A stretch of 64,000 bases of DNA, from NCBI GenBank assembly GCA_965112635.1, contig OZ218778.1, positions 2,510,966 through 2,574,965 on the forward strand, given 5' to 3'. The stretch is from an uncultured bacterium. Its GTDB lineage: Bacteria; Oederibacteriota; Oederibacteriia; Oederibacteriales; Oederibacteriaceae. The first letter of the stretch is position 1. Every line of letters begins with the position of its first letter. The notes beneath the pieces were generated by a model. That model did no database searches. It was not told the origin of the DNA and worked only from the letters and a program-made list of their open reading frames with translations. A program made the translations under genes and the position numbers. Below are positions 28,679-57,198 of the stretch, piece after piece.

Positions 28679-28696
28679 TTTCTCCTCACCCCTTTT

Positions 28697-29268: not shown

Positions 29269-29279
29269 TGGTTGCTCTC

Positions 29280-30749: not shown

Positions 30750-30765
30750 AAGAAGTTCTCCTTTT

Positions 30766-31062: not shown

Positions 31063-31125
31063 GGTTGGCTCTCTTTCCCGCGCCGGTCGCTCAACACGGA
31101 CCGGCCTCGATTTTTGAAAAAAGGG

Positions 31126-31395: not shown

Positions 31396-31426
31396 TTGCC
31401 TATCTCCTTTCCCCTTTTAGGGATAT

Positions 31427-32575
31427 TTAATTTTTATTCCCGATGACCTGGGCTGCGGCCCTGGCCACGACGATCTCTTCGTTCGTTTTAATGACCCACA
31501 CGGCGACCTGGGAATCCTCGCTGGAAATCCTGGTCTCCTGGTCGCCCAGGGCCTGTTCATTCCTGCTTGGGTCCAGCTTGACCCCGGCCCACTCCAGGTT
31601 GCTCAGCACGTTCTTGCGGACAAGGGGGTCCTTTTCTCCGATCCCCCCCGAAAAGGTGATGATATCCACCCCGTTGAGGCACACAAAAAAAGACCCCAGA
31701 TACCGGCGCACCCCGTAGGTAAAGGCATCAATAGCCAGTTGGGCCTGGGAGTCCCCGGCCCCTGCCGCTTTTTTGATGTCCCGCATGTCCCCGCCCTTCC
31801 CGCTCAAGCCGGCCAGGCCGGATTCTTTGGACAGGATGAGGGTGGTCTGTTCGATGGTCAAACCGAGCTCTTTCATCAAATAAAGGATGGCAAAAACATC
31901 CACGTCGCCGACCCGGTTGTTCTGCGGCAGGCCGCTCTGCGGGGTCATGCCAAAACTGGTGTCCACGGCCACCCCGTCCTTGACGGCGGCCATGCTGGAA
32001 CTGCCTCCCAGATGGCAGGAAATATGCCGCAGGTCCTTTTTATCGCAAAGAGCCTTGGCCCGCAAAGAAGCGTAGTGGTGGCTGGCCCCGTGGAATCCGA
32101 GCTTTTTAATATGCTGTTCTGTCCTCCATTTATAAGGCAGGGCGTAGGCCGACACGCAATCCGCCATGGAATCGAAAAAGGCGGTCTCGAAAAGGGCCAC
32201 CAGAGGAACTTTGGGGGCCACCTGCTGGAAAGCCCTCATGGCCGCGATGTAGGGAGGGTTATGGGCCGGGAAAAGGAAATTGTAGCTTTCCATGGCGTTT
32301 AAAAGCCTCTCGTCTACCCGGTGGCAGCCGCTCATGTCCTTGGCCCCGATGGTCTTGAAACCCACTCCGCTGAGTTCGGACAGGGACTGCAGGGGTTTGC
32401 CCGGTCCCACCATTTCCTTGAGGGAAGCGTCGATGGCGTCCTCGTAATGCAGGAATTGTCCGCCCTGCTGGCCTATCCGCTCGACTCTGCCTTCGCTCAG
32501 CACGGTCTCGGTTTCCATCTCATAGAGCCTGTATTTGAATGAGGTGCTGCCAATGTTGGCCACCAATATTTTCAC
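31427..32575 (-). CDS. ackA: Acetate/propionate kinase (AckA family)
   Basis: A 382-aa product with the N-terminal MKILVANIGSTSFKYRLYE, the acetate-kinase phosphate-binding start. It is embedded between shell genes. Confidence 0.85.
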   Translation of the reverse strand: MKILVANIGSTSFKYRLYEMETETVLSEGRVERIGQQGGQFLHYEDAIDASLKEMVGPGKPLQSLSELSGVGFKTIGAKDMSGCHRVDERLLNAMESYNFLFPAHNPPYIAAMRAFQQVAPKVPLVALFETAFFDSMADCVSAYALPYKWRTEQHIKKLGFHGASHHYASLRAKALCDKKDLRHISCHLGGSSSMAAVKDGVAVDTSFGMTPQSGLPQNNRVGDVDVFAILYLMKELGLTIEQTTLILSKESGLAGLSGKGGDMRDIKKAAGAGDSQAQLAIDAFTYGVRRYLGSFFVCLNGVDIITFSGGIGEKDPLVRKNVLSNLEWAGVKLDPSRNEQALGDQETRISSEDSQVAVWVIKTNEEIVVARAAAQVIGNKN

Positions 32576-32596
32576 TGCGTATTGCTCCTTGAACGG

Positions 32597-32872
32597 TTAT
32601 TTTAAAAACCCTTCCTCAATGCACTCGTGGGGCTGGGAAATCACGTGGTAGGCCGCCAACTCGCCGTTGACCGCCTTGACCGCCGCGATACCGGCATCCA
32701 CGGCCGCTCTGACGCTGCCCACATCGCCTTTGACGATGGTGGTCACCAGTCCGCCGCCGATCTGGATATTGTGCAAAAGCTCCACCTTGGCCGCCTTGCA
32801 CATGGCGTCGCTGGCGTTGACCAGGCCTGCCAGGCCTCTGGTCTCTATCATTCCGATCGCTTCGTTCATCAA
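32597..32872 (-). CDS. BMC-H hexameric shell protein
   Basis: A 91-aa product with IGMIETRGLAGLVNASDAMCKAAKV. Confidence 0.9.
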   Translation of the reverse strand: MMNEAIGMIETRGLAGLVNASDAMCKAAKVELLHNIQIGGGLVTTIVKGDVGSVRAAVDAGIAAVKAVNGELAAYHVISQPHECIEEGFLK

Positions 32873-32894
32873 AGTGTCTCCTTTTTAAAAGTTA

Positions 32895-33182
32895 TTATTT
32901 GCCTTTCTTGTTCCCCGGCTCCGCATAGTTGGACAACTCTTCGTGCGGGTGAGGGATCACCTGGGCGCTGACCACCTTGCCCAGCTTGGCCGCGGCTTCC
33001 GCGCCGGCGTCCACCGCCGCTTTGACCGCTGCCACATCGCCTTCAACAAAAGCGGTCACCAGGCCTGAACCGGCCGGCTCCCACTTAAGGAAGTTCACGT
33101 TGGCCGCCTTGCACATGGCGTCCACGGCTTCGATCAGCGGAACCATGCCCACGGTCTCGATCATTCCTAGAGCGTTCTTCAT
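32895..33182 (-). CDS. BMC-H hexameric shell protein
   Basis: A 95-aa product with LGMIETVGMVPLIEAVDAMCKAANV. Confidence 0.9.
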   Translation of the reverse strand: MKNALGMIETVGMVPLIEAVDAMCKAANVNFLKWEPAGSGLVTAFVEGDVAAVKAAVDAGAEAAAKLGKVVSAQVIPHPHEELSNYAEPGNKKGK

Positions 33183-33241
33183 TGGGTCATCTCCTTTCTT
33201 TTAGAATCGTGTCCGATCATGGAACAAAAACCCTCTCAACA

Positions 33242-33919
33242 TTATTTAAATAGTTCGACGTTCTTGGCGCGGTGCAAGCCGCAGGCATTCGCTTCATCCG
33301 TGTCCAGATGGACTTCCAATTTTGATTTGGGCTCCACCCTCACGTGGACCTTGTCGAAAACGACCTCAGTGTCGCCGGTGGAGACCCGCAGTTTCATGAT
33401 GTCCTTGTGCTTGACCCCGTAGTATTCCGCATCAGACGGGCTCATGTGCCCGTGAATAGCCGCGCGGACCACGCCTTCTTTAAGTTCCAGCAGACCTGCC
33501 GGCCCCATCACATACGCGCCCGGTGTTCCTTTTATATCCCCCGAGATGCGCACTGGCACATTCTCGATACCCAGGGTGATGGCGTCGGTGTAGGCCAGTT
33601 CGATCTGGGTGTAATTCCGCAGGGGTCCGAGGATACGCATATTGGAGATGAGGCGGCTCTTGGGCCCGATAAGGGTCACGGTCTCTTTGGCCGCGTAAAA
33701 ACCATCCTGGTAAAGGTCTTTAAAAGGGGTGAGTTTGGCGCCTGGCCCGAATAGGATTTCCAAGTCGGATTGCTTGAGGTGCATGTGCCGGGCTGAGGCG
33801 TTGACCACCAGGGGCGACGGCTTGCCTTTCCCTGGGGCTGGGGTACTTTTAGAAGCTGTTTGTTCCAATAGAACTTGCCGGACTACATCGGCAACCATGG
33901 ACCTGGTCAAGTTGGCCAT
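33242..33919 (-). CDS. pduL: Phosphotransacylase PduL (PTAC) with an N-terminal encapsulation-peptide-like helix
   Basis: A 225-aa product with PduL-like duplicated segments (ARHMHLKQSDLEILFGPG...; AAIHGHMSPSDAEYYGV). The N-terminal MVADVVRQVLLEQ is an amphipathic helix. Confidence 0.85.
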   Translation of the reverse strand: MANLTRSMVADVVRQVLLEQTASKSTPAPGKGKPSPLVVNASARHMHLKQSDLEILFGPGAKLTPFKDLYQDGFYAAKETVTLIGPKSRLISNMRILGPLRNYTQIELAYTDAITLGIENVPVRISGDIKGTPGAYVMGPAGLLELKEGVVRAAIHGHMSPSDAEYYGVKHKDIMKLRVSTGDTEVVFDKVHVRVEPKSKLEVHLDTDEANACGLHRAKNVELFK

Positions 33920-34030
33920 AAAACAACCTCCTTATTAAACTGGCCAAAGTATACTTCCACAATCGGTCAAAGTCAATCAAAATAATTCAATATCTTCCAT
34001 AATTGTTCAAAATGTGCTATACTCCTTGAT
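33920..34030. promoter_or_regulatory. Divergent intergenic region between pduL (minus) and deoR (plus). It is AT-rich and contains a TGnTATACT extended -10-like element at 34015-34023.
   Basis: 111 nt at about 30% GC in a 58%-GC genome. The TG-c-TATACT is read directly. I could not identify a convincing -35 element or operator. Confidence 0.3.
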
Positions 34031-34786
34031 ATGAAGGCAGCATTGCGTCAATTGAAAATAGAGGAATCTTTCAAGCAGACGGAGTTTATCGATTCTGAGA
34101 CCCTGTGCAAGAAGTTCCAAGCCTCAGAATCGACCATCCGCAGGGACCTTTCTGAACTGGAAAAAAAGGGGCTTATCCGGAGGGTCCATGGCGGTGCTTT
34201 GTCGCTTCACCTGCAGGATGACCATATGGATTTCGCCTATAGGAGCGCCCAGTCCTCCCAGGAAAAGCGCCGCATCGGCCAGGCAGCCGCGACTTTGGTC
34301 AAGGAAGGCACGACCATCATCTTGGACGGCGGTTCCACGGTGGCCGAGGTGGCCCGTCACCTGAATGGCAGGACGCTGCAGGTCATCACCAACTCCATTC
34401 CCATTGCCGAGATCTTCCACGACTCGCAAACCGTGGATGTTTCCCTGACCGGCGGATATCTCTATCCCCGTTCGGGCGTCCTGATGGGCCATTTTTGCGA
34501 GCAGATCCTGTCCATGATCAAAGCCAACACGGTCATTATGGGAATCGGAGGGATCAGCGAGAACGGGTTGAGCAACTCCAACTCGCTTATCGTGGGACAG
34601 GAAAAGAAAATGATCGAAGTCTCCAACCGGGTCATCATCGTGGCCGACCATACCAAGTTCGGCCACGACTCCACGATCTTTTTGGCTCCCCTGGAAAGGG
34701 CCAACGTCGTGGTCACGGATACCCTGGTGGACCCAAAATACGTCACCCTGCTGAAATCCCGCGGGGTCAATGTCTTAGTGGTGTAA
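34031..34786 (+). CDS. DeoR-family transcriptional regulator
   Basis: N-terminal HTH (ETLCKKFQASESTIRRDLSELEKKGLIRRVHGGA) and a C-terminal DeoR sugar-phosphate-binding domain. It is divergent from the BMC operon. Confidence 0.85.
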   Translation: MKAALRQLKIEESFKQTEFIDSETLCKKFQASESTIRRDLSELEKKGLIRRVHGGALSLHLQDDHMDFAYRSAQSSQEKRRIGQAAATLVKEGTTIILDGGSTVAEVARHLNGRTLQVITNSIPIAEIFHDSQTVDVSLTGGYLYPRSGVLMGHFCEQILSMIKANTVIMGIGGISENGLSNSNSLIVGQEKKMIEVSNRVIIVADHTKFGHDSTIFLAPLERANVVVTDTLVDPKYVTLLKSRGVNVLVV

Positions 34787-34795
34787 AGGAAGGTC

Positions 34796-36091
34796 ATGGC
34801 TGATTTCATCCAGGATAACGGGGTTGTCGGAGCCGGAGGAGCCGGGTTTCCCACAGCGGTCAAACTGCAGGCCAAGGTCTCCACTTTTATCGTCAACGCG
34901 GCTGAGTGCGAACCCCTGTTGCACAAGGACAAGGAACTTCTGGCCAACTATCCCGATGAATTTTTCAAGGGATTGGAAACCGCCATGTCCCGCACCGGCG
35001 CCGACCAGGCTGTCATCGGGATCAAGAACAAATACCACGCACTCATTGACTCCCTGCAGGGTAGTTTGCCCAGGTCGGTAAAAATCCACCCGCTGGACGA
35101 CATTTACCCTGCCGGAGATGAGTTTATTCTTGTTTATGACATCACGGGCAAGATCATCCCCCCAGGCGGCCTGCCTTTGCAGGTGGGCTGCGTGGTCAAC
35201 AATGTCGAGACTCTGGTCAACATTGGCCTGGCTAGGCCTGTGATTTCCAAGTTCGTGACGATAGCCGGCGCTGTTAAAGATCCTTGCACCCTCAATGTCC
35301 CCCTGGGCACACCCATTAGCCAGCTGATCTCAGCTGCCGGAGGTGTCACCAGCTCCGAATACGGCGTTCTGGTAGGCGGGGTCATGATGGGCCGCCTGCT
35401 GACCGACCCCCATGAACCGGTGACCAAAACAACGGGCGGAGTGCTGGTTTTCCCTGCTGACCATATTTTGCTGAAACGTTATGGCCGGACGCAAAAAATG
35501 ATTGACCGCATCGGTCGTTCTGCTTGTGACCAATGCAGCATGTGCACTGAAAAATGCCCCCGTTACCTGCTGGGCCACCCCATAGAACCGCATAAAGCCA
35601 TGCGGGCCTTGGGTTTTGCTCCTGAAAAGGACAGGATGATCATGGGCACACTGTATTGCTGTGAATGCAACCTTTGTTCCTTTGTATCCTGCCCTGAGGA
35701 CCTGGATCCCCGTTCGGTCTGCGCTCAGGCCAAGACCAAAGCCAGGGAAAAGAACCTTAAATGGGCCGGTTCCCCACAAGACATACAAAGTCATACCATG
35801 CTTCCCTATCGCCGCACTCCTACCAGGATTTTGTTCCAAAAACTGGATTTGAACGGTTTCACGAACAAGGCACCTCTGCAAAAGCAAAAATTGAGCGTTT
35901 CCAAAGTCGTCTTGCCTTTACGCCAGCATGTCGGGGTGGCTTGCGAACCAGTCGTGAAAATTGGTCAAGCGGTCAGGGAGGGTGAGCTCATTGCCAAGGT
36001 TCCTGAGGGAAAATTGGGCGCTCCACTGCATGCCAGTATTAGCGGAACAATCAAGGAAATAACGGGCACGATCACTATCGAGGCGAATTAA
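34796..36091 (+). CDS. PduS-like RnfC/NuoF-family Fe-S flavoprotein
   Basis: It has the GGAGFPT nucleotide-binding motif of the Complex1_51K/RnfC fold and two 4Fe-4S ferredoxin motifs (CDQCSMCTEKCP; CCECNLCSFVSCP). The C-terminal barrel-like domain is about 90 aa. The 431-aa length compares with about 450 aa for PduS. Confidence 0.75.
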   Translation: MADFIQDNGVVGAGGAGFPTAVKLQAKVSTFIVNAAECEPLLHKDKELLANYPDEFFKGLETAMSRTGADQAVIGIKNKYHALIDSLQGSLPRSVKIHPLDDIYPAGDEFILVYDITGKIIPPGGLPLQVGCVVNNVETLVNIGLARPVISKFVTIAGAVKDPCTLNVPLGTPISQLISAAGGVTSSEYGVLVGGVMMGRLLTDPHEPVTKTTGGVLVFPADHILLKRYGRTQKMIDRIGRSACDQCSMCTEKCPRYLLGHPIEPHKAMRALGFAPEKDRMIMGTLYCCECNLCSFVSCPEDLDPRSVCAQAKTKAREKNLKWAGSPQDIQSHTMLPYRRTPTRILFQKLDLNGFTNKAPLQKQKLSVSKVVLPLRQHVGVACEPVVKIGQAVREGELIAKVPEGKLGAPLHASISGTIKEITGTITIEAN

Positions 36092-36105
36092 AAGGAGGTT
36101 TAGCT

Positions 36106-36666
36106 ATGCCGGAGATCAACACCATCGGGATCGTCGAACTGACCAGTATCAGCCTGGGTTACCAGGTCCAGGACGCCATGCTCAAAACCGCCGCGGTCAG
36201 CCTGATCCTGGCCCGCTCTGTTTGCCCGGGCAAATACCTGATCGCCATCACCGGTGATGTTTCCTCGGTCAAGGCCAGCGTGGCCACTGGCGTGGCTATG
36301 GGCGCTGGAGCCGTGGTGGAGCAGGGCGTCATCGCCAACATTCACCCTTCGATCTTTCCGGCCCTGGCCCAGTCCGTGGAGGTCCCTCCTGAAGGAACTG
36401 GAGCTATGGGTGTCGTGGAAACATTTTCAGCTGCCAGCCTCATCGTGGCAGCGGATGCCGCGGCTAAAACAGCCGAGGTGACCATGTTACGGGTTTATTT
36501 GGCCATGGCTATCGGCGGGAAAGCATACTGTTTGATGACCGGGAAGCTGGGCGATGTCGAAGCGGCCGTGGAAGCCGCGGCCCAATCAGCGGGCGAAAGC
36601 GGCATGCTGGTCAGCAAGGTAGTCATCCCCGCTCCTCACCGGGACCTTTTCAAAGAATACATTTAA
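36106..36666 (+). CDS. BMC-T tandem-BMC-domain shell protein (PduT-like)
   Basis: A 186-aa product with two BMC-domain repeats (IGIVELTSISLGYQVQDAMLKTAAV.. and MGVVETFSAASLIVAADAAAKTAEV..). The Cys in SVCPGK is at the PduT-like pore position. A strong SD (AAAGGAGG) precedes it. Confidence 0.8.
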   Translation: MPEINTIGIVELTSISLGYQVQDAMLKTAAVSLILARSVCPGKYLIAITGDVSSVKASVATGVAMGAGAVVEQGVIANIHPSIFPALAQSVEVPPEGTGAMGVVETFSAASLIVAADAAAKTAEVTMLRVYLAMAIGGKAYCLMTGKLGDVEAAVEAAAQSAGESGMLVSKVVIPAPHRDLFKEYI

Positions 36667-46534: not shown

Positions 46535-46765
46535 TATTTTCCTTTATTTAAAGCACAAAAAGTCTTAGTCCCCGCCTATCTATTCATAGACCAGGCCCTA
46601 CAACCATATTCTAGCCTTGCTATACTACCATTTATACCCAAAAAATGGGTTAGGAAACCAGGTACGAAAACCACTAAACTTTAATAAAACTGGAACTTTC
46701 CTTATTAAAAAATGTCTAAATATTATTAGTTGTATCAGAGACAAAAAACAAATTAGAAGGTAATA

Positions 46766-49684
46766 TTGTTGTATTCTCGGGTTTATGGAGAGTTATCAAT
46801 GCCAGCCAAAAAATTAAATGGATTAAATACCCTGCTATTTTCTTTTTTATTGTTGGCGGTTTTCTCCCTGTCGGCTTTTGCTGAAAACTGGCCGGGTTAT
46901 AAAGGATATTTAAAGGACAGCTTCTCCAGCGTCACCATCACTCCCACTTCCCTGGGTCTGAAATGGGCCAAGCGCTTCAATATTATTGTTCCCACCTCTG
47001 GCTGGAGTAATGGCACTGAGCATTCCCGTAATCTTGCGCTGTATAACAGCAATCTGGCTTTAGTCGCCACAATTGACCCCAATGTTGGTACTAATACAGC
47101 CTGCGTAACGGTTCTTAACGCCAACACCGGGAGTGTCCTGAATTGTCTGCAAACCAACCAAAGGTATGGCCCTTATAAGAGCCAGATGGACACCTGCGAT
47201 GAAGAGTTTAGCGAACATGTCCTGGCTTGGGATCCTGATACAGGCTATTTATTTTTAGCCATAGGCGGAGACCAGGCCGACAAGACCGCCATTGATCCGA
47301 TGCAAAACAGCGGCTCGTTTGACGGGACGCATATCCAGGCGGCCGTGGGAGCCTATCAAAATCTTGTCAACAACTGGCCCGGGATCCGCAGTGTGCGGAC
47401 ATATTTAGGCGCCTTTACTGATAACAGTGGGATGACCCGGGCAGAATGCTTTGATCCCAGGACCGGGGGCCAGGGCATGGGGCCTGACCAATGGGATTAT
47501 GGTGTCACAGCTGATGGGTCTAACTCAGCCGGATTCTATGATGTGGAACCGGGAAGCAATTATCTCATCGTCAACAAAAATGAAGGCCACGATCTTGCCG
47601 GGGGCACGATGCTCATCAACAAATACACAGGCTTGGCTGCCAGCCACGATTGGGACCAGTCGTATAACACCTACCTGGCCTGGCCGGCTTTTAAAATGTG
47701 GGGAGGCTACCTGGTGAACAAGGATAAGGCTTACTACATGGGTCCCTACAGCCCCACCCAGGCCGGCAATCTGCCGGGCGCCAATGACGTCAATAGCGGA
47801 TTGCGCCTTGGATGCATCCAATACCACGATGTCAATCAATATCCCCTGGATGGTGGATATACCGGCCAGGGAATGAGCGAGACCGCGACCATGACCTCCA
47901 AAGTGTTCGACTACCAGCTTTCCAGCCCTGCCCCATGCTGGGTTGAATGGGATAGCACCTATAGGAACAAAGCTTTCCTTGTGGATAGCAGTACAGGCGG
48001 GGTGTGGGCAGCCTGGAAGCCAACCGTGGCCGGCCCTGTCCAGTTGGTCAGTGCCACCCCGCTAAGCGAACAGACCTACAATCTATCCGTCGGCGCCAAC
48101 ATGCATCAGGAAGATATCTGGCACAATATGGCCCTGGCCGATCTGGGCGCAGCCGGAAAATATATTGTATATGCCTTGTTTAACGCCCAAAGTCCCACCA
48201 CCAGGGGGGTGTCCAATAGCAACTATCCCTCGGGCCCGGCCCTGGCTCCGACAGGCCCAAGCACACTCACTGTTTTTGACGCCAACGCCGGGACTGAAAA
48301 ATGGACCTACCAGTTAAATACCGCGGCCGGGAACGGTAACTACCCTACACTTCCTCCCAATCCGTGTGTTTTATATGCGGAAAAGAACAGGATGATCGTT
48401 ACGGGGAACTATGCTTATGTGTCCTGGATAGATACGCAGACCGGGCCTAACTTAAAATTAAATGTAGTGGGTTTTGATATTACCGCGGCATCCGCTCCGG
48501 CCTCGCCGCCCACACCTTTTACCTATGACCTGGGGGTAGCCCTCAACTCCAGCCTGACCCAGGGTTCTGGAGGTAATATGGCCAGCCGGGCCACGGACAT
48601 GATCGCGGCTGACGGCACCCTCTATGTGCTGGTAGAGGAAGAAACCTATGTGTCTGGTGACGGCGGTCTTACCACGCGTCCCGGCTATGTCAACGCCCAG
48701 CAGGTCATTGCCCTGAGCCAGGTCGCCCAAACCCCGACCTTTACTTCAACCCCGACTGCAACCAGCACGGCCACGGCGACACGCACCGCCACGCAGACCC
48801 CGACTCCCATCGCCTCGTCAACTTCCACGGTGACTTCCAGTCAGACCCTGACCAGCTCCCAAACGGTGACCCCATCCCTTACCCTCACCCCTAGCCATAC
48901 CAATACAATCACTACCACTTCTACCCAGACGCTCACGAGTTCCCAGACCGTAACGCCTTCATTGACCCTGACTTCCAGCCAGACCTTTACCATCACCCAG
49001 ACCTCGACCCAGTCCTACACCTCGACCCAAACCCTGACCTCTACTCAAACATCCACTCCTAGCCAGACCTTTACCATCACCCAGACCTCCACCCAGACCA
49101 ATTCACCGACCCAAACATTGACACCGTCCGAAACCCTGACCTCCAGCCAGACCTTTACCGTGACGGTCACCGCGACTCAGACAGCCACCTTTACCCAGAC
49201 CCTAACTGTTACTCAGACCCTGACCTCTAGCAACACCTTTACCGTGACCAACACCGTAACGCCTTCCCAAACTGTGACGCCAAGCCTGACCGTGACATCA
49301 AGCGCCACCCTGACCAGCTCCCTGACCTTTACCCCGACTCCCAGCGGCAAACTACAAATTCTGCAGCATGTGCCCTACCCCAACCCGGTCCAGCATAATA
49401 ATATGAGCATTTACGTGGAGCTGGCTGATGTCCCTAATAAGATGAATTTCAAGCTTTACACCTGCGGGATGAGGCTGGTGCGGGCTTTCCATATTGAACA
49501 ACCTGGGAATAATATGCAGATCGTGTATGACAACAATGTGGCCAGGTACGCCTACACGTTCAACTACGACCTTACGGACGGGAACGGCAACTTGCTCGCC
49601 AACGGCCTTTATTACTACGTGATCGAATCATCCAAAAACCAGGTCAACTACAGGGTCATCGGCAAATTCTTCGTCCTGCGTTAA
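46766..49684 (+). CDS. Large secreted protein (972 aa). It has a signal peptide, an N-terminal domain of about 640 aa (possibly a beta-propeller), a Thr/Ser-rich linker and a C-terminal T9SS/FlgD-Ig-like sorting domain.
   Basis: Signal peptide (LLFSFLLLAVFSLSAFA). It is a paralogue of 50835-53825. The C-terminus reads VPYPNPVQHNNMSIYVELADVP..FKLYTCGMRLVRAF..NGLYYYVIES..VIGKFFVLR. Confidence 0.65.
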   Translation: MLYSRVYGELSMPAKKLNGLNTLLFSFLLLAVFSLSAFAENWPGYKGYLKDSFSSVTITPTSLGLKWAKRFNIIVPTSGWSNGTEHSRNLALYNSNLALVATIDPNVGTNTACVTVLNANTGSVLNCLQTNQRYGPYKSQMDTCDEEFSEHVLAWDPDTGYLFLAIGGDQADKTAIDPMQNSGSFDGTHIQAAVGAYQNLVNNWPGIRSVRTYLGAFTDNSGMTRAECFDPRTGGQGMGPDQWDYGVTADGSNSAGFYDVEPGSNYLIVNKNEGHDLAGGTMLINKYTGLAASHDWDQSYNTYLAWPAFKMWGGYLVNKDKAYYMGPYSPTQAGNLPGANDVNSGLRLGCIQYHDVNQYPLDGGYTGQGMSETATMTSKVFDYQLSSPAPCWVEWDSTYRNKAFLVDSSTGGVWAAWKPTVAGPVQLVSATPLSEQTYNLSVGANMHQEDIWHNMALADLGAAGKYIVYALFNAQSPTTRGVSNSNYPSGPALAPTGPSTLTVFDANAGTEKWTYQLNTAAGNGNYPTLPPNPCVLYAEKNRMIVTGNYAYVSWIDTQTGPNLKLNVVGFDITAASAPASPPTPFTYDLGVALNSSLTQGSGGNMASRATDMIAADGTLYVLVEEETYVSGDGGLTTRPGYVNAQQVIALSQVAQTPTFTSTPTATSTATATRTATQTPTPIASSTSTVTSSQTLTSSQTVTPSLTLTPSHTNTITTTSTQTLTSSQTVTPSLTLTSSQTFTITQTSTQSYTSTQTLTSTQTSTPSQTFTITQTSTQTNSPTQTLTPSETLTSSQTFTVTVTATQTATFTQTLTVTQTLTSSNTFTVTNTVTPSQTVTPSLTVTSSATLTSSLTFTPTPSGKLQILQHVPYPNPVQHNNMSIYVELADVPNKMNFKLYTCGMRLVRAFHIEQPGNNMQIVYDNNVARYAYTFNYDLTDGNGNLLANGLYYYVIESSKNQVNYRVIGKFFVLR
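48728..49350 (+). repeat. Low-complexity tandem repeat encoding a Thr/Ser/Pro-rich linker (TQTLTSSQTFT-type)
   Basis: The repetitive cagaccctgacc... units are seen directly in the sequence. Confidence 0.8.
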
Positions 49685-49769
49685 CAGCCCGCGGTTCTTC
49701 TCCAACCTTAACAGCATAACCATAGTAATTTGTGAATGATTTAGTTGTGAGCAGTGGACGAGGGGGGAA

Positions 49770-50669
49770 TTAACTTTTCTTCCGGGATACTAAGCGGAAA
49801 GCCCGCGGCGTCAGGCCGGTGACCCTCTTGAAGGCTATGGTGAAGCTATGGCTGGAGGAAAAGCCCAGGTCCAGCCCTATCTTCTTGACCTGATCATTGG
49901 ACTTGGCCAGCTTCTCACGGGCGCAATTAACACGCTGGCGGAGATAGTAGTACGCTGGAGAAAGCCCTGTCTGTTTTTTGAACTGGTTCTTGAAATAGGA
50001 AAGAGCCCAGCCCAGTTTTTTGCTGATCTCGGATAAGGCCAGGGGCCTGGCCAGGTTTTGGTTCATGAGTTGTATGGCCTCTTTGACCAGCACCGATTGT
50101 CTCGGGGGACGCGCCACGTTCTGCCCTGCTCTTAAAACCGCCAAAAGAAGTTCCAACAAAGCAGCCCTGGTGTCCAATACCCTAAATGGGTTTTCGGGGA
50201 GACTGAGGTTGGCCAAAATCCGGTCAAAAGAAGTTTCCACCACAGCTGGAACCGGAAAACAGCACTGGGGCAGTTGCCGCAGCCTCGCGCATAACGCCCA
50301 GGCTTCTTCTTTAGGTAAACCTAAAAAGTTACCTTTCTTTTGCGCCTCGAAGGACACGCAGACCCAGTACATCTCACAGGGGGTGAAAAGATTCTCCGCT
50401 GCCCCGTGCTTTTCTTTGTGCTGGGTGATGGCTACCTGACCGCTGCGCAGCTCATAAAAATGCGGCTCCTCTGACCCGAACCGCTTGCTCACCCCGCGTT
50501 TCATGTAAAGGATCTCCAGCGCGTCGTGGACGTGCAACTCATCCTCTTCGTTAATATGAGTTCTTTTTATGATAGTTTTCCCTGCGATCACCAATTCCGG
50601 GATACCAACCAACGGATCATAGTGATCAATGGCTGCGTAAAGGTGGTCGTTATGTTTTATTTTGCTCAA
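49770..50669 (-). CDS. AraC-family transcriptional regulator (N-terminal cupin-like domain, C-terminal HTH)
   Basis: The C-terminal double HTH (ISKKLGWALSYFKNQFKKQTGLSPAYY...IGLDLGFSSSHSFTIAFKRVTGLTPRAF) is typical AraC. It lies between the two secreted paralogues. Confidence 0.8.
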   Translation of the reverse strand: MSKIKHNDHLYAAIDHYDPLVGIPELVIAGKTIIKRTHINEEDELHVHDALEILYMKRGVSKRFGSEEPHFYELRSGQVAITQHKEKHGAAENLFTPCEMYWVCVSFEAQKKGNFLGLPKEEAWALCARLRQLPQCCFPVPAVVETSFDRILANLSLPENPFRVLDTRAALLELLLAVLRAGQNVARPPRQSVLVKEAIQLMNQNLARPLALSEISKKLGWALSYFKNQFKKQTGLSPAYYYLRQRVNCAREKLAKSNDQVKKIGLDLGFSSSHSFTIAFKRVTGLTPRAFRLVSRKKS

Positions 50670-50834
50670 TGTCCAGCTGCCCCTCCCCTAAAAACCATGA
50701 AAAACATAAGCAATATGCTTCCGAATAGTCACAAAGATACAGTGTACTTTTTGAACTATCATTTCAGAAACTCTACTCGGTCTTAGGTGTCTAATTATAC
50801 ATAAATAAACTACCGATACACAAATCGGAGAAAC
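50670..50834. promoter_or_regulatory. AT-rich divergent intergenic region between the AraC regulator (minus) and the secreted paralogue (plus). It is a likely promoter and operator region.
   Basis: 165 nt of low GC. It is divergently arranged with an AraC-family gene. Confidence 0.25.
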
Positions 50835-53825
50835 ATGATGGCTAAATTCAAAAATTTAATGGTTATCCTTACCCTGATCATTATTTTACCCCCGCTGGTT
50901 TTTGCGGAGAATTGGCCGGGCTATAAGGGATTTCTAAAAGACAGCTTTTCCAGCGTCACCATTACTCCCTCTGCCCTAGGTTTAAAATGGGCCAAGCGTT
51001 TTACCTACCTAGCTCCCGATAACCATGATACAGGCGGTCACCTCGCCTGCGAACATTCCCGCAATATCGTCCTCCTAAACGGCAAACTGGCGCTCTGCGG
51101 TTCTGTGGACCCCAACGCCGCTACCAACACCAATGTCTGCTATATCACCATCCTCGATGCCAATACCGGCAACGCTTTAAATTGTCTCACGACCAGCCAA
51201 AGATGGGGCCCTTACAAAAACATGATAGACGTCTGCGACGCCGAGGAAGCGGAACAAATTTTAATGTGGGACCCTGACACAGGCTATTTATTCATTGACG
51301 CTGGCGGCGACATGGCCGACAAAACCGCTATCGATCCCCTGGCCAATTCCGGCTCCTTTGACGGCACCGATGCGCAGATAGCCTTCGGGGCCTATGGGAA
51401 CCTCGCCACCAACTGGCCCAGCATTCGCAGCGTCCGCACCTACAGCGAAGTGGGCAATACTGATAATAACGGTTTGACCCGTGCGGAATGTTACAGCCAA
51501 AAAACCGACGCCGAAGGTATGGCCCCTGATGCATGGGATTACGGCACTACGGGAAACGGCTCTAACCAGGATGGTTTCAATGATTGTGAGCCTGGAAGTG
51601 AATATCTCGTAGCCAGTAAAAACGAGGGTCATGATGTGGCAGGCGGTGTGATGCTCATCAACAAATACACAGGCCTGGCTGCCAGCCATGATTGGGACCA
51701 GGCCTACAACACCTATCTGGGCTGGCCCGTATTTAAAATGTGGGGAGGCTTCCTGGTCAACCAGGACAAAGCTTACTATATGGGCCCTTATGACCCCACT
51801 GTTCCCGGCAACAGTTCTAGCCCCAATGCCAATGATGTCCAAAAGGGCCTGCAGTTGGGCTGTCTGCAATACCAGGACCAAAACCAGTATCCCTTGGACG
51901 GAGGTTATACCGGAAATGGCATGAATGAAACCGCGGTCAAAATTGCCAGCGTATTCAACTATACCTTCACCAGTGCCGGCCAGGCCTGGCAGGAAACCGA
52001 TGGTACCTATAGGAACAAAGCCTTTCTCCTGGATAGCGCGACCGGCGGTGTCTGGGCAGCTTGGAAACCGACCGTGGCCGGCACGGTCCAGCTGGTCAAC
52101 GCCACTCCGTCAACCAGCCAGACCTATAACTTGTCCGTGGGAACCAATATGCAACAGGCGGATATCTGGCCCAACATGGCCTTGGCCAACCTGGGCGCTG
52201 CCGGAAAATATATCGTCTACGCCATATTCAACGCGCAAACTCCCACTAACAGAGGCGGTCCGGCAGGACATCCGGGCAACCAGCCCACGGGTCCAGCCTT
52301 AGCGCCGACAGGCCCAAGCACACTCACGGTTTTTGACTGCAATGCTGGGACTGAAAAATGGACCTACCAGTTGAACAACACTGCAGGGAACGGCAACTAC
52401 CCGACACTTTCCCCCAACATGTTCGTACTATACTCCGAAAGGGAAAGGATGATCGTCACGGGAAATTATGCCTATGTATCCTGGATAGATATGCAGACCG
52501 GACCTAATTTGAAATTAAATGTGGTGGGCTTTGACATTACCGCGAACAGCGCCCCAGCCGTGCCCCCCACTCCCTTTACTTATGACCTGGGCGTGGCCCT
52601 TAACGGCAGCACGACCGCGGGACAGGGCGGGAATATGGCCAGCCGCGCCACGGACATGATCGCGGCCGACGGCACCCTCTACGTGCTGGTGGACGAGGAA
52701 ACCCTGGTCAATGGTGACGGCGGTCTTACCACCCGACCCGGTTACCTCAATGCCCAGCAAATCATTGCCTTGAGCCAGGCCGCCCAAACCCCGACCTTTA
52801 CCTCCACCCCGACCTCCACGAGCACGGCTACAGCGACGCGCACCGTCACCCAGTCCCCTACGATAAGCCCCACCTTGACGGCCACGGTCACCTCCAGCCA
52901 GACCACCACTAGATCTCAGACCGTAACCCCATCCCTGACCCTCACTCCCAGTCTGACCGCTACCATAACCACCACCTCAACGCAGACCGTGACCAGCTCC
53001 CAAACCGTAACTCCTTCTCTGACCCCTACTCCCAGCCTGACCTTTACTATCACCACCACCTCCACCCAGACCTATACCGCGACGCAGACCCTGACCTCTT
53101 CTAAAACACCTACTTCCAGTCAGACCTTTACAATCACCACTACCTTCACTCAGACCTGCACCTCTACGCAAACTCTGACCTTTACCCAGACATCCACGGC
53201 CACCCAGACCGCCACGGCTACCAACACAGCCACCCAGACCTATTCACCCACTCAGACCCTGACCCCTTCGCAAACCCTGACTTCCAGCCAGACCTTTACC
53301 GTGACAGTCACCGCGACCCAGACTGTCACCTTTACCCAAACCGCGACCTTTACTCAGACCCTGACCTCTAGCAACACCTTTACCGTGACCAACACCGTGA
53401 CGCCTTCCCAGACTGTGACCCCCAGCCTGACTGTGACTTCAAGCGCCACCCTGACCAGCTCCCTGACTTTTACCCCGACTCCCAGCGGCAAACTGCAGAT
53501 CCTGCAGCATGTGCCCTACCCCAACCCTGTCCAGCATAATAATATGAGCATTTATGTGGAGCTGGCTGACGTGCCCGGCAGGATGAATTTCAAGTTTTAC
53601 ACCTGCGGGATGAGGCTGGTGCGGGCTTTCCATATTGAACAACCTGGGAATAATATGCAGATCGTGTATGACAACAATGTGGCCAGGTACGCCTACACGC
53701 TTAACTACGACCTTACGGACGGGAACGGCAACTTGCTTGCCAACGGTCTGTATTATTACGCCATTGAGACCAGTAATAGCGCTATGAAGTACAGGGTCAT
53801 CGGCAAATTCGTCGTCCTGCGCTGA
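50835..53825 (+). CDS. Large secreted protein (996 aa), paralogue of 46766-49684 with the same three-part architecture
   Basis: Signal peptide (MVILTLIIILPPLVFA). It shares the ENWPGYKG...SVTITP N-terminus and a nearly identical CTD with the paralogue. Confidence 0.65.
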   Translation: MMAKFKNLMVILTLIIILPPLVFAENWPGYKGFLKDSFSSVTITPSALGLKWAKRFTYLAPDNHDTGGHLACEHSRNIVLLNGKLALCGSVDPNAATNTNVCYITILDANTGNALNCLTTSQRWGPYKNMIDVCDAEEAEQILMWDPDTGYLFIDAGGDMADKTAIDPLANSGSFDGTDAQIAFGAYGNLATNWPSIRSVRTYSEVGNTDNNGLTRAECYSQKTDAEGMAPDAWDYGTTGNGSNQDGFNDCEPGSEYLVASKNEGHDVAGGVMLINKYTGLAASHDWDQAYNTYLGWPVFKMWGGFLVNQDKAYYMGPYDPTVPGNSSSPNANDVQKGLQLGCLQYQDQNQYPLDGGYTGNGMNETAVKIASVFNYTFTSAGQAWQETDGTYRNKAFLLDSATGGVWAAWKPTVAGTVQLVNATPSTSQTYNLSVGTNMQQADIWPNMALANLGAAGKYIVYAIFNAQTPTNRGGPAGHPGNQPTGPALAPTGPSTLTVFDCNAGTEKWTYQLNNTAGNGNYPTLSPNMFVLYSERERMIVTGNYAYVSWIDMQTGPNLKLNVVGFDITANSAPAVPPTPFTYDLGVALNGSTTAGQGGNMASRATDMIAADGTLYVLVDEETLVNGDGGLTTRPGYLNAQQIIALSQAAQTPTFTSTPTSTSTATATRTVTQSPTISPTLTATVTSSQTTTRSQTVTPSLTLTPSLTATITTTSTQTVTSSQTVTPSLTPTPSLTFTITTTSTQTYTATQTLTSSKTPTSSQTFTITTTFTQTCTSTQTLTFTQTSTATQTATATNTATQTYSPTQTLTPSQTLTSSQTFTVTVTATQTVTFTQTATFTQTLTSSNTFTVTNTVTPSQTVTPSLTVTSSATLTSSLTFTPTPSGKLQILQHVPYPNPVQHNNMSIYVELADVPGRMNFKFYTCGMRLVRAFHIEQPGNNMQIVYDNNVARYAYTLNYDLTDGNGNLLANGLYYYAIETSNSAMKYRVIGKFVVLR
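52790..53490 (+). repeat. Low-complexity tandem repeat encoding a Thr/Ser/Pro-rich linker
   Basis: Seen directly. The 3' part is nearly identical to 49140-49350. Confidence 0.8.
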
Positions 53826-53913
53826 TAGGCCTACACCCTACCCTACTTTATCCCTTGCTAGCTAATAATCCGAACAGTTAACCAGAGAGAATATAGGATA
53901 GCTACCAGGCCCT

Positions 53914-56900
53914 TCATTTCAATACAATGAATTTTTTAGGTCCAATCTTGGTAGAACCCTGGTAGGTGTATGTTGAGCTGTATTTCATGCTGACCATGTA
54001 CAGGTAAACACCGGATACGAAATTCCTGACATCCAAAATGCTCGCCTGCGGCCCTCCCTGCTTTTGCTCCTCTATGGTCGCCACCAGTTCCGCGGCTTCA
54101 TTATATACCCGTATCTTCACAGTCCCCGGCCCTGCCATCAGGTAAACAATGGTCGCTGAATCCCCTGTTGCCGGCGATGGGTAAATAAACGAAGTACCAA
54201 GGGTTGGAGGGGTTGTGATAAAAGTCGGCGTGTTAGTAAAAGTCAACGAAGGCGTAAAGGTCATAGACGGGGTCTGGGTCTGCGAAGGCGTAGAGGTCTG
54301 GGTCGAGGTATAGGTCTGCGTCCCCGTCATGGTCACCGTGAAGGTCATGGTGACTGTGAAAGTCTGCGTGATCGTGGCAGTCTGGGTTGCCGTATTGGTC
54401 TGTGTGGCCGTGGCGGTCACCGTGGGAGTATTGGTCGCGGTGCCTGTCTGGGTTACGGTGGCGGTCTGGCTGGAGGTCAGGGTTTGGGTCAAGGTCATGG
54501 TGCTGGTCCCTGTCATGGTGCTGGTAGCGGTCACGGTAATGGTTGCAGTCTGCGTGCTGGTGGCTGTCTGGGTAGCGGTAGGGGTACTGGTCCAGGTCTG
54601 GGTAATAGTAAAGGTTAGGCTGGAGGTCAGAGTTTGCGAAGGGGTCAGGGTCTGGCTCGGCGTCAGGGTCTGCGTCGCGGTATAGGTCTGGGTGCCTGTG
54701 CTGGAAGGTGTCAGTGTCAGGCTGGGGGTCAAGGTCATGCTGGGGGTCAGGGTTATGGTCGCCGTGGCGGTCTGGGTCCCTGTGGTCGTAGGAGTACGGG
54801 TAGCACTTGGCGTCATAGTCTGGGTGGCCGTATAGGTGAGCGTCGTCGTCGCCGAACTGGTGGAGGTCGGGGTCGAGGTAGAGGTGTTCTGATTTTGCTT
54901 CCAGGCGCCTCCGCCGTAAGACCCAAGATATATCATGTTATTGGCAGTGTCAAAAGTCATCCGATGCGGCGATTCATAAGGCAGACCCGTCAGCCTTGTC
55001 CAAGTGCCGCCGCTGTCCAAGCTTTTCCACAAACCCTGCCCGCTGGTGGTCAGGTACATGGTAGAGCTGGTGACCGGGTCAAAGATGGGCTGGAACCCGA
55101 TGATTCGAGGAAAGATTAGTCCCGGGTCTACGTTGCACTGGGTCCAAAGCCCGCCCCCGTTGATGGTCTTGTAAAGCCCCGCGTCGCCCGAAGGCTGCCA
55201 GCCGTTGGTAAAGGTCATATACACGATACTACTGTTGGACGGGTCCACGTTATATTCCTGGGGCGTATAGGCCGGACTGCCCCCGTCTACGTTGGCGGAA
55301 ATATTGGTCCAAGTCACGCCGTGGTTCACGGACTTAAAAAGCCCTCCCGGGTTGGTATAACCAGGTCCGTCCCCAACAATGAGGCAGAACATGGTCCCAT
55401 CGCTGTGCATCCTCAAGGTATAAAGATGCGTATTGGTCCCCACAGCCAGAGAACTGTCGGACCATTTGCTCCAGTTGGTGCCTCCGTTGGTGGACCTATA
55501 AACAGCACCAGGGGTTGTGCTGGAAGACCCGTAAGCCGTGGCATAGATAGTGGCGGGATTGGTGGACTGGTCCGCGGTCAGGGAAGTGATGGGCAGAGGC
55601 AGGCCGTTGTAGGTCGGTAAACCGGTGTGGTAGGAATCGCTCCAAGTGACGCCTTTATCTATGCTTTTGATGACTCCCCCGCACACCCAGGAACCGGGAA
55701 AAGTGGGTCCGCTTACTTTTGACGGAATATCATGCTGCCAGGACTGCGCCGCGTAAACCCAGGAAGTTTTACCCGCATGGGAATCAAAAGCCAGGGCATA
55801 GATGGTATTGATCACATAGGGTTTGGGACCCGAATACCAGTTCACCCCGCTGTCCGTGCTGTAGGCATAACCGATATCGGTATAGCAGATATAGTGATAG
55901 CTGGGATCGGCCGGGTTGATGTAATAATTATGGACCCCGGTCACCTCCAGTCCCCGAGAGGTCCAGGGCTGGCTGGGCTGCAGTGTACCCACGGACGTGG
56001 AGTAGACCTGCTGCCAGTTATTTCCCCCATCCACACTGGAATAAATGTCCCCGCTGTTACTGGCCATCACCTGGTTGGTGTTAGTAGGATTAACGCTCAA
56101 CCCGTTGAGAAAAGGACCTACCCAGTCGGACTGGACCAGGTCAAAAGTTTCCCAGCCAACCGTGACGTTCGGGGGCTGGGGGCCGTACCCGTTCCAATTG
56201 ACGTTAAAAACCTGGGTCCAGGCACCGCCATCATTGGTGGTTTTATAAACCTCAGCGCCCAGAGGCGCGACTGTGTCGGTCACATAGGCCGTATCCGGCG
56301 CATTGTCGGCCACGGCCAGGAGATAATTGGTGGTGTTGCCGTCACTGGTGGTAGGGGTCCAGTTCCCCCCGTTGATGGACACATAGACCGGCTGGCCGGG
56401 CATGACCACATAGGCGGCCTCGCGGTTGGACGGGCTGGTCACACTGCCTCCGGCAAAGCTGGTCGGGTAAGAGGATCCGGTAAACGCGGGAAGCCCGGTA
56501 TTAAAAGGGGCCCAGGTGGCTCCCTGGTTCAAGGACCGGTAAACTCCCTGGCTGGTGCCGCAATAGCAGGTGCGGTTGCCCTGCTGTGTTGTCTGGTCCA
56601 CCAGGAAATTAACCACAAAACCGCTGATAGTAGGGCACAGGGTCCAATTTACTCCGCCGTTGATGCTCCGGTAGGCCTTGGTGGGCGTGCCCACGAACAT
56701 CAGGGAAGCGTCCCCCCGGTCAATGTAAATGCAGGTCAAATACTCCGACCAGGGCCCATTCACCACGCTCCAGGTATTGCCCTGGTCTGTGGTCTTTAAA
56801 AGATAGGAGGCATAATTGCTTTTTTGGTCGCCAAAACCCCAGACCGTATTGACATCCGTGGGGCTGAAAGCAAAAGGGCACTGGCGGTCCCTGATCAGGT

Positions 56901-57198
56901 TCCCGTCCCCGGGAACATTCACCAGGGAATTGATCTGCATGAAATCCAACATGACCCAGGTGTTGCCGCCATCCACCGAACGGTAAAATCCTCCCATATC
57001 GCAGGAACAAAAGATCAGGTTGGAATTCAGTGGGGAAATGGACGGGGCATAGATGGTACCTCCTCCGCCCAATCCCACGGGAGTCCAGGTAATGGTCTGC
57101 CCGGACAATATTCCTGCTAGGTTAAGACACAGCGCAACCGCCAGGAAAATGCAGTAAAACTCGTATTTACAGGCCATTATAGAGGTTCTCATCCACAA
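53914..57198 (-). CDS. Large secreted BNR/Asp-box repeat protein (1094 aa; sortilin/GH74-like beta-propellers) with a Thr/Ser-rich linker and a T9SS/FlgD-Ig-like C-terminal domain
   Basis: Signal peptide. At least 12 Asp-box motifs (SVDGGNTW, TTDQGNTW, SINGGVNW, SLNQGATW, TTNDGGAW, SVDGGNNW, STDSGVNW, SIDKGVTW, STNGGTNW, SVNHGVTW, TINGGGLW, SLDSGGTW). The C-terminus reads IYPSPATGDSATIVYL...VKIRVYNEAAELV...SGVYLYMV...KKFIVLK. Confidence 0.7.
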   Translation of the reverse strand: MWMRTSIMACKYEFYCIFLAVALCLNLAGILSGQTITWTPVGLGGGGTIYAPSISPLNSNLIFCSCDMGGFYRSVDGGNTWVMLDFMQINSLVNVPGDGNLIRDRQCPFAFSPTDVNTVWGFGDQKSNYASYLLKTTDQGNTWSVVNGPWSEYLTCIYIDRGDASLMFVGTPTKAYRSINGGVNWTLCPTISGFVVNFLVDQTTQQGNRTCYCGTSQGVYRSLNQGATWAPFNTGLPAFTGSSYPTSFAGGSVTSPSNREAAYVVMPGQPVYVSINGGNWTPTTSDGNTTNYLLAVADNAPDTAYVTDTVAPLGAEVYKTTNDGGAWTQVFNVNWNGYGPQPPNVTVGWETFDLVQSDWVGPFLNGLSVNPTNTNQVMASNSGDIYSSVDGGNNWQQVYSTSVGTLQPSQPWTSRGLEVTGVHNYYINPADPSYHYICYTDIGYAYSTDSGVNWYSGPKPYVINTIYALAFDSHAGKTSWVYAAQSWQHDIPSKVSGPTFPGSWVCGGVIKSIDKGVTWSDSYHTGLPTYNGLPLPITSLTADQSTNPATIYATAYGSSSTTPGAVYRSTNGGTNWSKWSDSSLAVGTNTHLYTLRMHSDGTMFCLIVGDGPGYTNPGGLFKSVNHGVTWTNISANVDGGSPAYTPQEYNVDPSNSSIVYMTFTNGWQPSGDAGLYKTINGGGLWTQCNVDPGLIFPRIIGFQPIFDPVTSSTMYLTTSGQGLWKSLDSGGTWTRLTGLPYESPHRMTFDTANNMIYLGSYGGGAWKQNQNTSTSTPTSTSSATTTLTYTATQTMTPSATRTPTTTGTQTATATITLTPSMTLTPSLTLTPSSTGTQTYTATQTLTPSQTLTPSQTLTSSLTFTITQTWTSTPTATQTATSTQTATITVTATSTMTGTSTMTLTQTLTSSQTATVTQTGTATNTPTVTATATQTNTATQTATITQTFTVTMTFTVTMTGTQTYTSTQTSTPSQTQTPSMTFTPSLTFTNTPTFITTPPTLGTSFIYPSPATGDSATIVYLMAGPGTVKIRVYNEAAELVATIEEQKQGGPQASILDVRNFVSGVYLYMVSMKYSSTYTYQGSTKIGPKKFIVLK
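54223..54889 (-). repeat. Low-complexity tandem repeat encoding a 222-aa Thr/Ser/Pro-rich linker
   Basis: Seen directly. The antisense frame gives the spurious VTVKV-repeat ORF at 54329-54685. Confidence 0.8.

Follow-up and report, generated by a model that had tools for sequence, protein, structure and literature searches.

We analysed a 64,000-nucleotide (nt) stretch of DNA from an uncultured bacterium (contig OZ218778.1), hereafter the window, focusing on three genes for giant secreted proteins that surround a gene for an AraC/XylS-family regulator. These genes are called A, B and C here; the features of A and B lie on the + strand and those of C on the - strand. The open reading frame (ORF) of gene A (46766-49684) encodes 972 amino acids (aa), although translation probably begins with the ATG at 46799, which follows a GGAGAG and gives a protein of 961 aa with a more typical signal peptide. 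Gene B (50835-53825) has an ORF of 996 aa, with a database copy of 995 aa starting at 50838, and gene C (53914-57198) has an ORF of 1094 aa, with a database copy of 1092 aa starting at 57192 after an AAGGAGG. The regulator gene (49770-50669, - strand; 299 aa) is located between A and B, whose proteins are 74% identical. A preliminary description of the locus, made from the DNA letters alone, had proposed that the three proteins share one plan comprising a signal peptide, a large N-terminal domain, a Thr/Ser-rich linker and a C-terminal domain (CTD), and both the ORFs and their composition agreed with it. Signal peptides were judged directly from the sequence by their basic n-region, hydrophobic core and small-residue cleavage site. 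That of A (46799..46882; 28 aa, read by eye) begins with MPAKKLNG and would be cleaved between SLSAFA and ENWP, that of B (23 aa) between PLVFA and ENWP, and that of C (31 aa) between GILSG and QTITW. The signal peptide is followed in A by a domain of ~615 aa (46883..48727) from an orphan family of predicted beta-propellers, in B by its paralogue (50838..52784, including the signal peptide), and in C by a putative BNR/Asp-box tandem-propeller region of ~740 aa (54886..57192, including the signal peptide).

The CTDs of A (49346..49684; 112 aa plus stop) and B (53487..53825; 112 aa plus stop) are 89% identical and extend from VPYPNPV to GKF(F/V)VLR over ~105-112 aa, while that of C (53914..54189; ~91 aa plus stop) extends from FIYPSPA to KKFIVLK over ~90 aa. 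The three proteins had been credited with a single common CTD. Instead, the A/B and C domains share 22% identity with a pairwise E of 0.03, and we regard them as two subfamilies of one superfamily. The other part of the proposal, a resemblance to type IX secretion system (T9SS) CTDs or to FlgD immunoglobulin (Ig)-like domains, was upheld, for C at curated cut-offs and for A/B through profiles, intermediate sequences and predicted fold. Searches with the hidden Markov models (HMMs) TIGR04183, PF18962 and PF13860 gave a split result. The CTD of C, scanned alone, passed PF18962 with 27.1 bits against a cut-off of 27 and TIGR04183 with 25.4 against 23, both marginally, whereas A and B stayed below the cut-offs of all three models, with 10.0-10.7 bits for TIGR04183 (E 0.4), 10 bits for PF18962 and, for PF13860 (FlgD_ig, cut-off 27 bits), 15.3 bits in A and 12.3 bits in B. 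The best matches of the A/B CTD were FlgD_ig (E 0.02) and CHU_C (E 0.018).

To place the A/B-type domain we relied on its homologues. A phmmer search with the A CTD against 1.84 billion representatives returned 36 proteins. In the best matches (P0023, P0024, P0026, P0028-30 and P0032) the domain forms the last 95-115 residues behind unrelated N-terminal parts, and these proteins also bear Thr-rich linkers like that of A. The weaker matches, with library-wide E-values of 2e-7 to 9e-4, carry classic tails of the form NYPNPF...KIYT.SGRLI...W.G.D..G..VANGVYFY...GK.A..R. In all C-terminal matches the domain runs to the last residue of the protein or stops a few residues short of it; matches in several stretches of giant proteins, in which a 'Y.YDL.D..GN' segment appeared to align with repeat proteins, were set aside by eye. 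Many unrelated passengers carry the CTD at their very end, which is the placement expected of a sorting signal. Among 20 aligned tails, 12 matched TIGR04183, 13 the PorU CTD model NF033707, nine PorZ and eight PF13860 (E <= 0.01). When a profile of the A/B-type subfamily (12 sequences) was compared with one of the canonical tails (10 sequences) using hhalign, they aligned over their full length with a probability of 99.9% and an E of 5.8e-33, the main difference being an insertion of ~15 residues in the A/B type. The tail of C matched the canonical profile with a probability of 92% (E 6e-7). A direct comparison of the A/B subfamily with the C CTD reached only 16.6%, and the two are linked solely through the canonical group.

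Structural comparisons pointed in the same direction. The canonical profile matched PorU (6za2, 1.4e-10), PorZ (5m11, 1.4e-4) and an isolated T9SS CTD (8glj, 1.9e-3) in the PDB, and also FlgD. The AlphaFold (AF2) model of the A CTD, with a predicted local distance difference test (pLDDT) score of 93.5, is an eight-strand Ig-like sandwich, and a Foldseek search with this model retrieved the PorU CTD 6za2 (E 4.4e-4, TMq 0.67) and PorZ 5m11 (E 4.7e-3) from the PDB. In the tail alignment, P12, P14, Y38 and G87 are invariant and Y89, Y91, G106 and K107 nearly so, which yields three conserved motifs: YPNP, G-x-Y-x-Y, and a G-K ahead of the hydrophobic-basic end. Type-A CTDs possess a conserved lysine of functional importance, which has been reported to contact PorV (PMC12398890). 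From its position in the alignment, we infer that K107 corresponds to this residue. Judged by profile-profile comparison, intermediate sequences and predicted fold together, the CTD of A and B is demonstrably homologous to the T9SS type-A CTD. The curated models TIGR04183, PF18962 and PF13860 thus miss a whole homologous CTD subfamily, so that the secretomes of uncultured glycan degraders are under-called, and the tail alignment obtained here could seed a new CTD model.

The same design recurs throughout the 2.88-Mb genome to which the window belongs, and many of the phmmer matches described above are encoded on its 2.88-Mb contig. At least 17 proteins follow it, at least 12 with an A-type and at least five with a canonical CTD, and all CTD proteins of the genome that we inspected have Thr linkers. 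Their passengers, unrelated to one another and in several cases with recognisable carbohydrate-active domains, include beta-helices with the carbohydrate-binding modules (CBMs) CBM11/CBM30, esterase-like domains, CBMs, BNR and malectin. At one locus (L009), five large genes follow one another, and every one of their products has a signal peptide and a Thr linker. Four of the five end in a visible CTD of the A/B or canonical type, and the fifth extends past the edge of the locus. Interspersed among these CTD-protein genes are two AraC genes, so that AraC genes adjoin them at L009 as well as here. Further loci encode beta-helix proteins with CBM11/CBM30, BNR proteins with a Por_Secre_tail, and CBM proteins. 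Beyond this genome, the A-type subfamily was almost confined to a few close relatives.

We estimate at roughly 60% the probability that A, B and C are cargo of a genome-wide set of surface or secreted proteins that share one modular plan and are sorted by a T9SS-type CTD. Behaviour like that of T9SS cargo is well supported, and export would proceed through T9SS or a T9SS-like machine. Each protein would cross the inner membrane by means of its Sec signal peptide. The passenger would be a beta-propeller, of an orphan family in A and B and of the tandem BNR/Asp-box type, distantly GH74-like, in C. The 205-255-aa (T/S)-x linker would be a stalk or extended spacer with plausible O-glycosylation, and the C-terminal Ig-like sandwich would be the signal for outer-membrane translocation and for surface release or attachment. 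The AraC/XylS regulator would most likely turn on the neighbouring gene or genes in response to a sugar or a glycan breakdown product. Like the type-A cargo of Bacteroidota, the proteins combine an N-terminal Sec signal with an Ig-like sandwich of ~80-110 aa at the very end, share the YPNP, G-x-Y and G-K...basic motifs, and belong to a set with many unrelated hydrolase or adhesin passengers. They differ from it in that the CTD of A and B carries the ~15-residue insertion (...QPGNNMQIVYDNNVARYAYT...), falls below curated cut-offs, and belongs to a subfamily nearly limited to one uncultured lineage. There is precedent for a design that joins a signal peptide, an enzyme, a linker and a CTD and has a local AraC regulator; the novelty lies in a lineage-restricted variant of the CTD that current models do not see, in an orphan family of surface propellers and in a very regular Thr-striped linker.

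Several results weigh against sorting by a T9SS-type signal. The CTD of A and B (last 112 aa) is under the cut-off of every curated HMM, and C, when scanned at full length, scores 22 bits against a cut-off of 27. A profile restricted to the A/B subfamily reached the PorU CTD in the PDB at just E = 1, so the link between A/B and PorU depends on intermediate sequences, and these were picked from the matches of the A CTD itself; an E of 5.8e-33 is, in our judgement, far beyond anything that such a selection could yield. E-values in the same range were also obtained by Foldseek for domains of the Fn3-like, FlgD and antibody kinds, and the fold, being generic, is supportive only. No T9SS component was seen in the ~160 kb that we read (the window plus loci L009-L013; 5-6% of the 2.88-Mb genome). 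T9SS and CTD-bearing proteins have been described as restricted to the superphylum of Fibrobacteres, Chlorobi and Bacteroidetes (FCB; PMC12398890, PMC9170169), and our literature search retrieved no paper on T9SS C-terminal domains outside Bacteroidetes in candidate phyla. On the regulatory side, the three AraC genes that adjoin CTD genes are merely 23-30% identical and no operator is defined; such identities would be as expected for locus-specific regulators.

The sub-threshold HMM scores of A and B and the generic fold, with matches to FlgD, the ScpA Fn3 domain and the Wzt carbohydrate-binding domain at similar scores, are also what would be seen if the CTD were an ordinary Ig-like, FlgD-Ig or Fn3-like module rather than a sorting signal. 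The domain would then act, for example, in carbohydrate or cell-envelope binding or in oligomerisation, and the proteins would leave the cell through the type II secretion system (T2SS), in vesicles or by lysis; that T9SS is a route we infer leaves room for this. Nevertheless, each C-terminal phmmer match lies at or near the end of its protein (once the internal multi-stretch matches are set aside by eye), unrelated passengers are joined to the domain through the same type of linker, the G-K-hydrophobic-basic C-terminus of type-A CTDs is conserved, and the homology to the PorU and PorZ CTDs is demonstrable. We therefore consider an ordinary module unlikely. As for FlgD, eight of the 20 tails match the FlgD Ig-like domain PF13860 and the profile matches FlgD structures, whereas A and B score 12-15 bits and there is no flagellar context. 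This relation is one of fold and sequence, not of function.

A further explanation accepts the homology and changes the reader of the signal. If the host is a non-FCB bacterium lacking a canonical T9SS, the domain would be a T9SS-CTD homologue recognised by a different, lineage-specific machine, and the A/B variant with its ~15-residue insertion would be an adapted signal. The near confinement of the A-type CTD to this genome and a few close relatives, its invisibility to standard models and the failure to see a T9SS gene in the ~160 kb sampled are in line with such a machine. In addition, the genome has no close relative among 185,579 GTDB species representatives, and the best homologues of the A/B passenger come from Planctomycetota and Elusimicrobia, not from the FCB group, the Elusimicrobia homologue also having an FlgD_ig-type CTD. 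Against it, C and at least four other proteins of the genome carry canonical-type CTDs, which are most simply explained by a normal T9SS, the portion of the genome inspected amounts to 5-6% only, and the non-FCB host is a premise. This makes a dedicated machine rather improbable. Should the host lie outside the FCB group, either T9SS extends beyond it or another machine reads the signal. A conserved GH57 enzyme of the genome is ~70% identical to proteins of many phyla and to none above 72%.

Returning to sorting by a T9SS-type CTD, the second element of the shared plan is the linker (48728..49345, ~206 aa in A; 52785..53486, ~234 aa in B; 54190..54885, ~232 aa in C). With a criterion of at least 50% T/S/P, the linkers measured 221 aa in A, 250 aa in B and 256 aa in C, so the Thr/Ser richness first noted was confirmed and the length of 200-230 aa first given had to be revised to 221-256 aa. 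Thr accounts for 38-42% of the residues and Ser for 11-17% (53-55% together), Pro for 6-7%, and charged residues are essentially nil. The maximum Thr plus Ser content per 100 residues was 59-63% in the three proteins and at most 34% in all other ORFs of the window. This composition is highly ordered. The autocorrelation of Thr was about +0.6 at even lags and about -0.6 at odd lags, with its maximum at lag 6 (0.71 in A, 0.71-0.75 over the three linkers), and the positions not taken by the alternating Thr or Ser are occupied by Q, L, F, V, A, P or S. The (T/S)-x alternation keeps a constant register along the linker of A, and the same period-2/period-6 pattern is present in C. As a consequence, one face of the extended chain would be nearly pure Thr/Ser. 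The residues at the x positions suggest not a simple disordered Pro/Thr (PT) linker but an extended ribbon, amphipathic and beta-like.

At the DNA level the linker repeats are degenerate, with periods of 18 and 84 nt and 66-90% matches, and the linker of B contains one 28-aa (84-nt) repeat unit more than that of A. The linkers, and hence the giant ORFs, could in principle be assembly artefacts of collapsed or mis-joined low-complexity repeats, as the 18- and 84-nt periods and some shorter calls in the NCBI copy (P0026, 575 aa against 794 aa for P0175 of the same 90% cluster; P0022, 284 aa) might suggest, but this is very unlikely because the repeats are merely 66-90% alike and hence not prone to collapse, the frames stay open for 200 or more codons in the three genes here and in at least 10 elsewhere, the (T/S)-x register is maintained along each linker, and the identical protein is recorded for two contigs, one at NCBI (2.88 Mb) and one at ENA (631 kb). 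Short CTD-gene products were recorded on the 2.88-Mb contig (P0022, 284 aa; P0026, 575 aa; P0027, 78 aa; P0033, 124 aa), P0175 being located on a 387-kb contig in ENA/NCBI; these short records suggest that frameshifts occur in the repetitive linkers or that genes were called differently there.

Pro/Thr-rich O-glycosylated interdomain linkers occur in secreted cellulases and other glycoside hydrolases (GHs). Those of A, B and C resemble them in being hydroxyl-rich, low-complexity spacers between a catalytic-type and a C-terminal module of secreted, carbohydrate-active proteins. Unlike them, they are far longer (205-255 aa) and Pro-poor (6-7%), and alternate (T/S)-x in a constant register with a six-residue super-period. 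The Bacteroidota O-glycosylation sequon D(S/T)(A/I/L/V/M/T) occurred 0, 0 and 1 times in the three linkers. Since it is essentially missing, any glycosylation of these linkers would follow another rule. A literature search found no paper combining the terms 'threonine-rich' and 'linker' with T9SS. A broader picture can be sketched in which a non-FCB host sorts dozens of glycan-active proteins through T9SS-type CTDs, including a private variant, the linker is a structured, probably glycosylated, Thr-faced stalk that holds the enzymes off the cell, and A and B represent a new carbohydrate-active family; we consider this picture speculative and doubtful.

The 3' ends of A and B are more alike than the rest of the genes. 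We determined synonymous divergence (Ks) by the Nei-Gojobori method on the A/B codon alignment. The N-terminal domain gave a Ks of 1.43, saturated in its 5' part and dropping to 0.65 near the 3' end of the domain. Across the linker, Ks went from 0.95-1.0 in the proximal to 0.31 in the distal part; it then fell to 0.235 in the first 80 codons of the CTD and rose again to 0.85 in the last 32 codons. From the distal linker through these first 80 codons, synonymous divergence was thus about five-fold lower. Similarly, nucleotide identity between 49148-49648 and 53289-53789 was 88-99% per 100 nt, compared with 78% in the following 100 columns and 52-84% upstream of the linker. A drop in Ks is not explicable by constraint at the protein level, and it delimits a conversion or recombination tract at about 49180-49590 in A and 53320-53730 in B. 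These data support partial gene conversion between A and B, and not selection alone, as the probable origin of the similarity. In a plausible history, A and B would derive from an old duplication and their 3' ends would later have been partly homogenised. The conversion suspected beforehand was thereby strengthened, while the near identity at the nucleotide level with which it had been argued came down to ~90% in the tract. A recent exchange of the C linker with the A/B linkers was also considered and rejected: only patches of ~50 nt were found, 72-82% complementary to those of B.

The N-terminal domains of A and B matched nothing described. Their first ~640 residues gave no sequence match in Pfam, NCBIfam or the PDB and belonged to no described propeller family (PQQ/BamB/WD40-like); the assignment as beta-propellers comes from the predicted fold only. 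Among 5.8 billion clusters, 17 sequences were homologous to this propeller, A and B included. A scan of the 185,579 GTDB species representatives located three distant loci, in Elusimicrobia, Phycisphaerae and Planctomycetaceae. The Planctomycetota homologues are 49-55% identical and mostly 650-680 aa long, and their copies (P0003-P0011; L002 6862-8907) end in PPPP, Gly7-9 and CGLLG(L/P/I)E, followed by a brief run of hydrophobic residues and by Arg/Lys. No CTERM sorting model matched these Gly-rich-Cys tails in an NCBIfam scan; the tail looks like an undescribed CTERM-type sorting signal. The homologue from Elusimicrobia bacterium RIFOXYA2_FULL_39_19 (L004 3911-7435; 1174 aa, 34% identity) has the same mature N-terminus as A and B (AENWP.YEG), but five CarboxypepD_reg-like repeats replace the Thr linker and are followed by a FlgD_ig/Por_Secre_tail CTD (PF13860, 30 bits against 27). 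This tail is T9SS-like, and its phylum is not one of those assigned to the FCB group.

Because the C-terminal device is swapped among these homologues, the A/B propeller can be argued to work at the cell surface. A and B would then belong to an orphan secreted beta-propeller family with three C-terminal surface-display devices in different phyla. A distant relative bears a CBM96, which hints at a carbohydrate ligand for the propeller. The three proteins had been described as a set of polysaccharide-acting beta-propellers. A polysaccharide role of A and B was not borne out by any family or catalytic assignment, and the hints toward a glycan role come only from the glycan-degrading neighbourhood and from the distant CBM96 relative. 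The A/B propeller is a good candidate for a new carbohydrate-active or carbohydrate-binding family, in which A and B may be enzymes.

For C, the earlier label of BNR/Asp-box protein was correct: 12 Asp-boxes are distributed over ~740 aa, compared with none in A or B. Pfam matches were weak (PF02012 BNR and Ycf48-like). The best NCBIfam model, NF045728 'F510_1955 family glycosylhydrolase', scored 89.8 bits (1.6e-25), below its cut-off of 175. Matches to GH74 xyloglucanases had E-values of 2e-9 to 1e-5 (PDB 6p2o, 2.2e-9; 5fkt), although they were partial and non-collinear, with residues 619-746 of the query aligning to residues 72-200 of GH74. C thus resembles the GH74 xyloglucanases and other BNR tandem propellers (6p2o, 5fkt) in its Asp-boxes and sequence matches, and departs from them in that the matches are partial, out of register and below cut-off. 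It is probably a tandem BNR propeller of a distantly GH74-like type.

The regulator encoded between A and B had been called an AraC-family protein, and its HTH domains were well over the cut-offs (HTH_18, PF12833, 65.3 bits against 33.6; HTH_AraC, PF00165, 50.1 against 26.6). Its N-terminus matched the AraC_binding/cupin family weakly (PF02311, 15.8 bits against a cut-off of 21.1). The gene is convergent with A and divergent from B, from which it is separated by a 165-bp intergenic region. The arrangement is like that of polysaccharide-utilisation-type loci in placing a sugar-regulator gene amid genes for secreted glycan-active proteins; unlike those loci, it has no SusC/SusD pair, and the regulators of different loci are only 23-30% identical. 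Upstream of A, the motif TGTCTAAATATT (46713..46724, + strand) lies 75 nt before the ATG, and upstream of B, the motif TGTCTAATTATA (50788..50799, + strand) lies 39 nt before the ATG at 50838. Both conform to the pattern TGTCTAAWTWWW, of which these are the two copies in the window, against 0.05 expected. The pattern was also present upstream of two more genes for A-type-CTD proteins of the same genome (L009 9949-9960 and L010 9812-9823), and copies were found only upstream of such genes. The pattern could represent either a promoter element of the extended -10-like kind or a site for a regulator. A scan of the locus for sigma-70 promoters and terminators gave results not above shuffled expectation.

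In the same genome, a conserved leader of ~50-110 nt was observed upstream of four secreted-protein genes, three of them with a confirmed CTD (L009 13930-14046, L009 16640-16760, L010 9905-10000 and L011 7770-7925). Its core consists of AAGAAC.AGCGA(A)AAAGCCG, a hairpin and GGGAGAGCTA.CCG, with a terminator-like end, GGTTCTTTTTTT, coming next in three of the four copies. Among the four copies, three pairs of the hairpin change on both sides. The leader had no match in Rfam and no copy in the window, in which no RNA family, rRNA included, was detected. It is a candidate cis-regulatory RNA.

The window is a glycan-catabolic neighbourhood, in which GH127, GH123, an MFS transporter and a rhamnosidase-like protein are encoded near a microcompartment locus. 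Together, the two GHs, the rhamnosidase-like gene and the microcompartment locus suggest plant or algal glycans containing rhamnose, fucose and arabinose as substrates. Three paralogues of 753-767 aa (2333-4594, 4641-6944 and 8498-10771, all on the - strand) are very much alike at both termini and lack a signal peptide; the copy at 2333-4594, the one that was scanned, had no Pfam or NCBIfam match. Among these paralogues are a lipid A acyltransferase gene and, between two of them, a toxin-antitoxin pair annotated through Pfam as PhdYeFM antitoxin and ParE-YoeB toxin (~6967-7469, - strand; L013 7126-7628). An ORF of 485 aa at 14295-15752 (+ strand) has a signal peptide, a Thr/Ser content of 34% in 100 aa and no family match. 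The microcompartment locus (27545-36666) encodes a class II aldolase, an aldehyde dehydrogenase, a PduL-type phosphotransacylase, an RnfC-like protein and a PduT-like shell protein, together with an ORF whose N-terminal sequence, by eye, resembles acetate kinase; we take this locus to be of the fucose/rhamnose-degrading (Planctomycetes-Verrucomicrobia) type.

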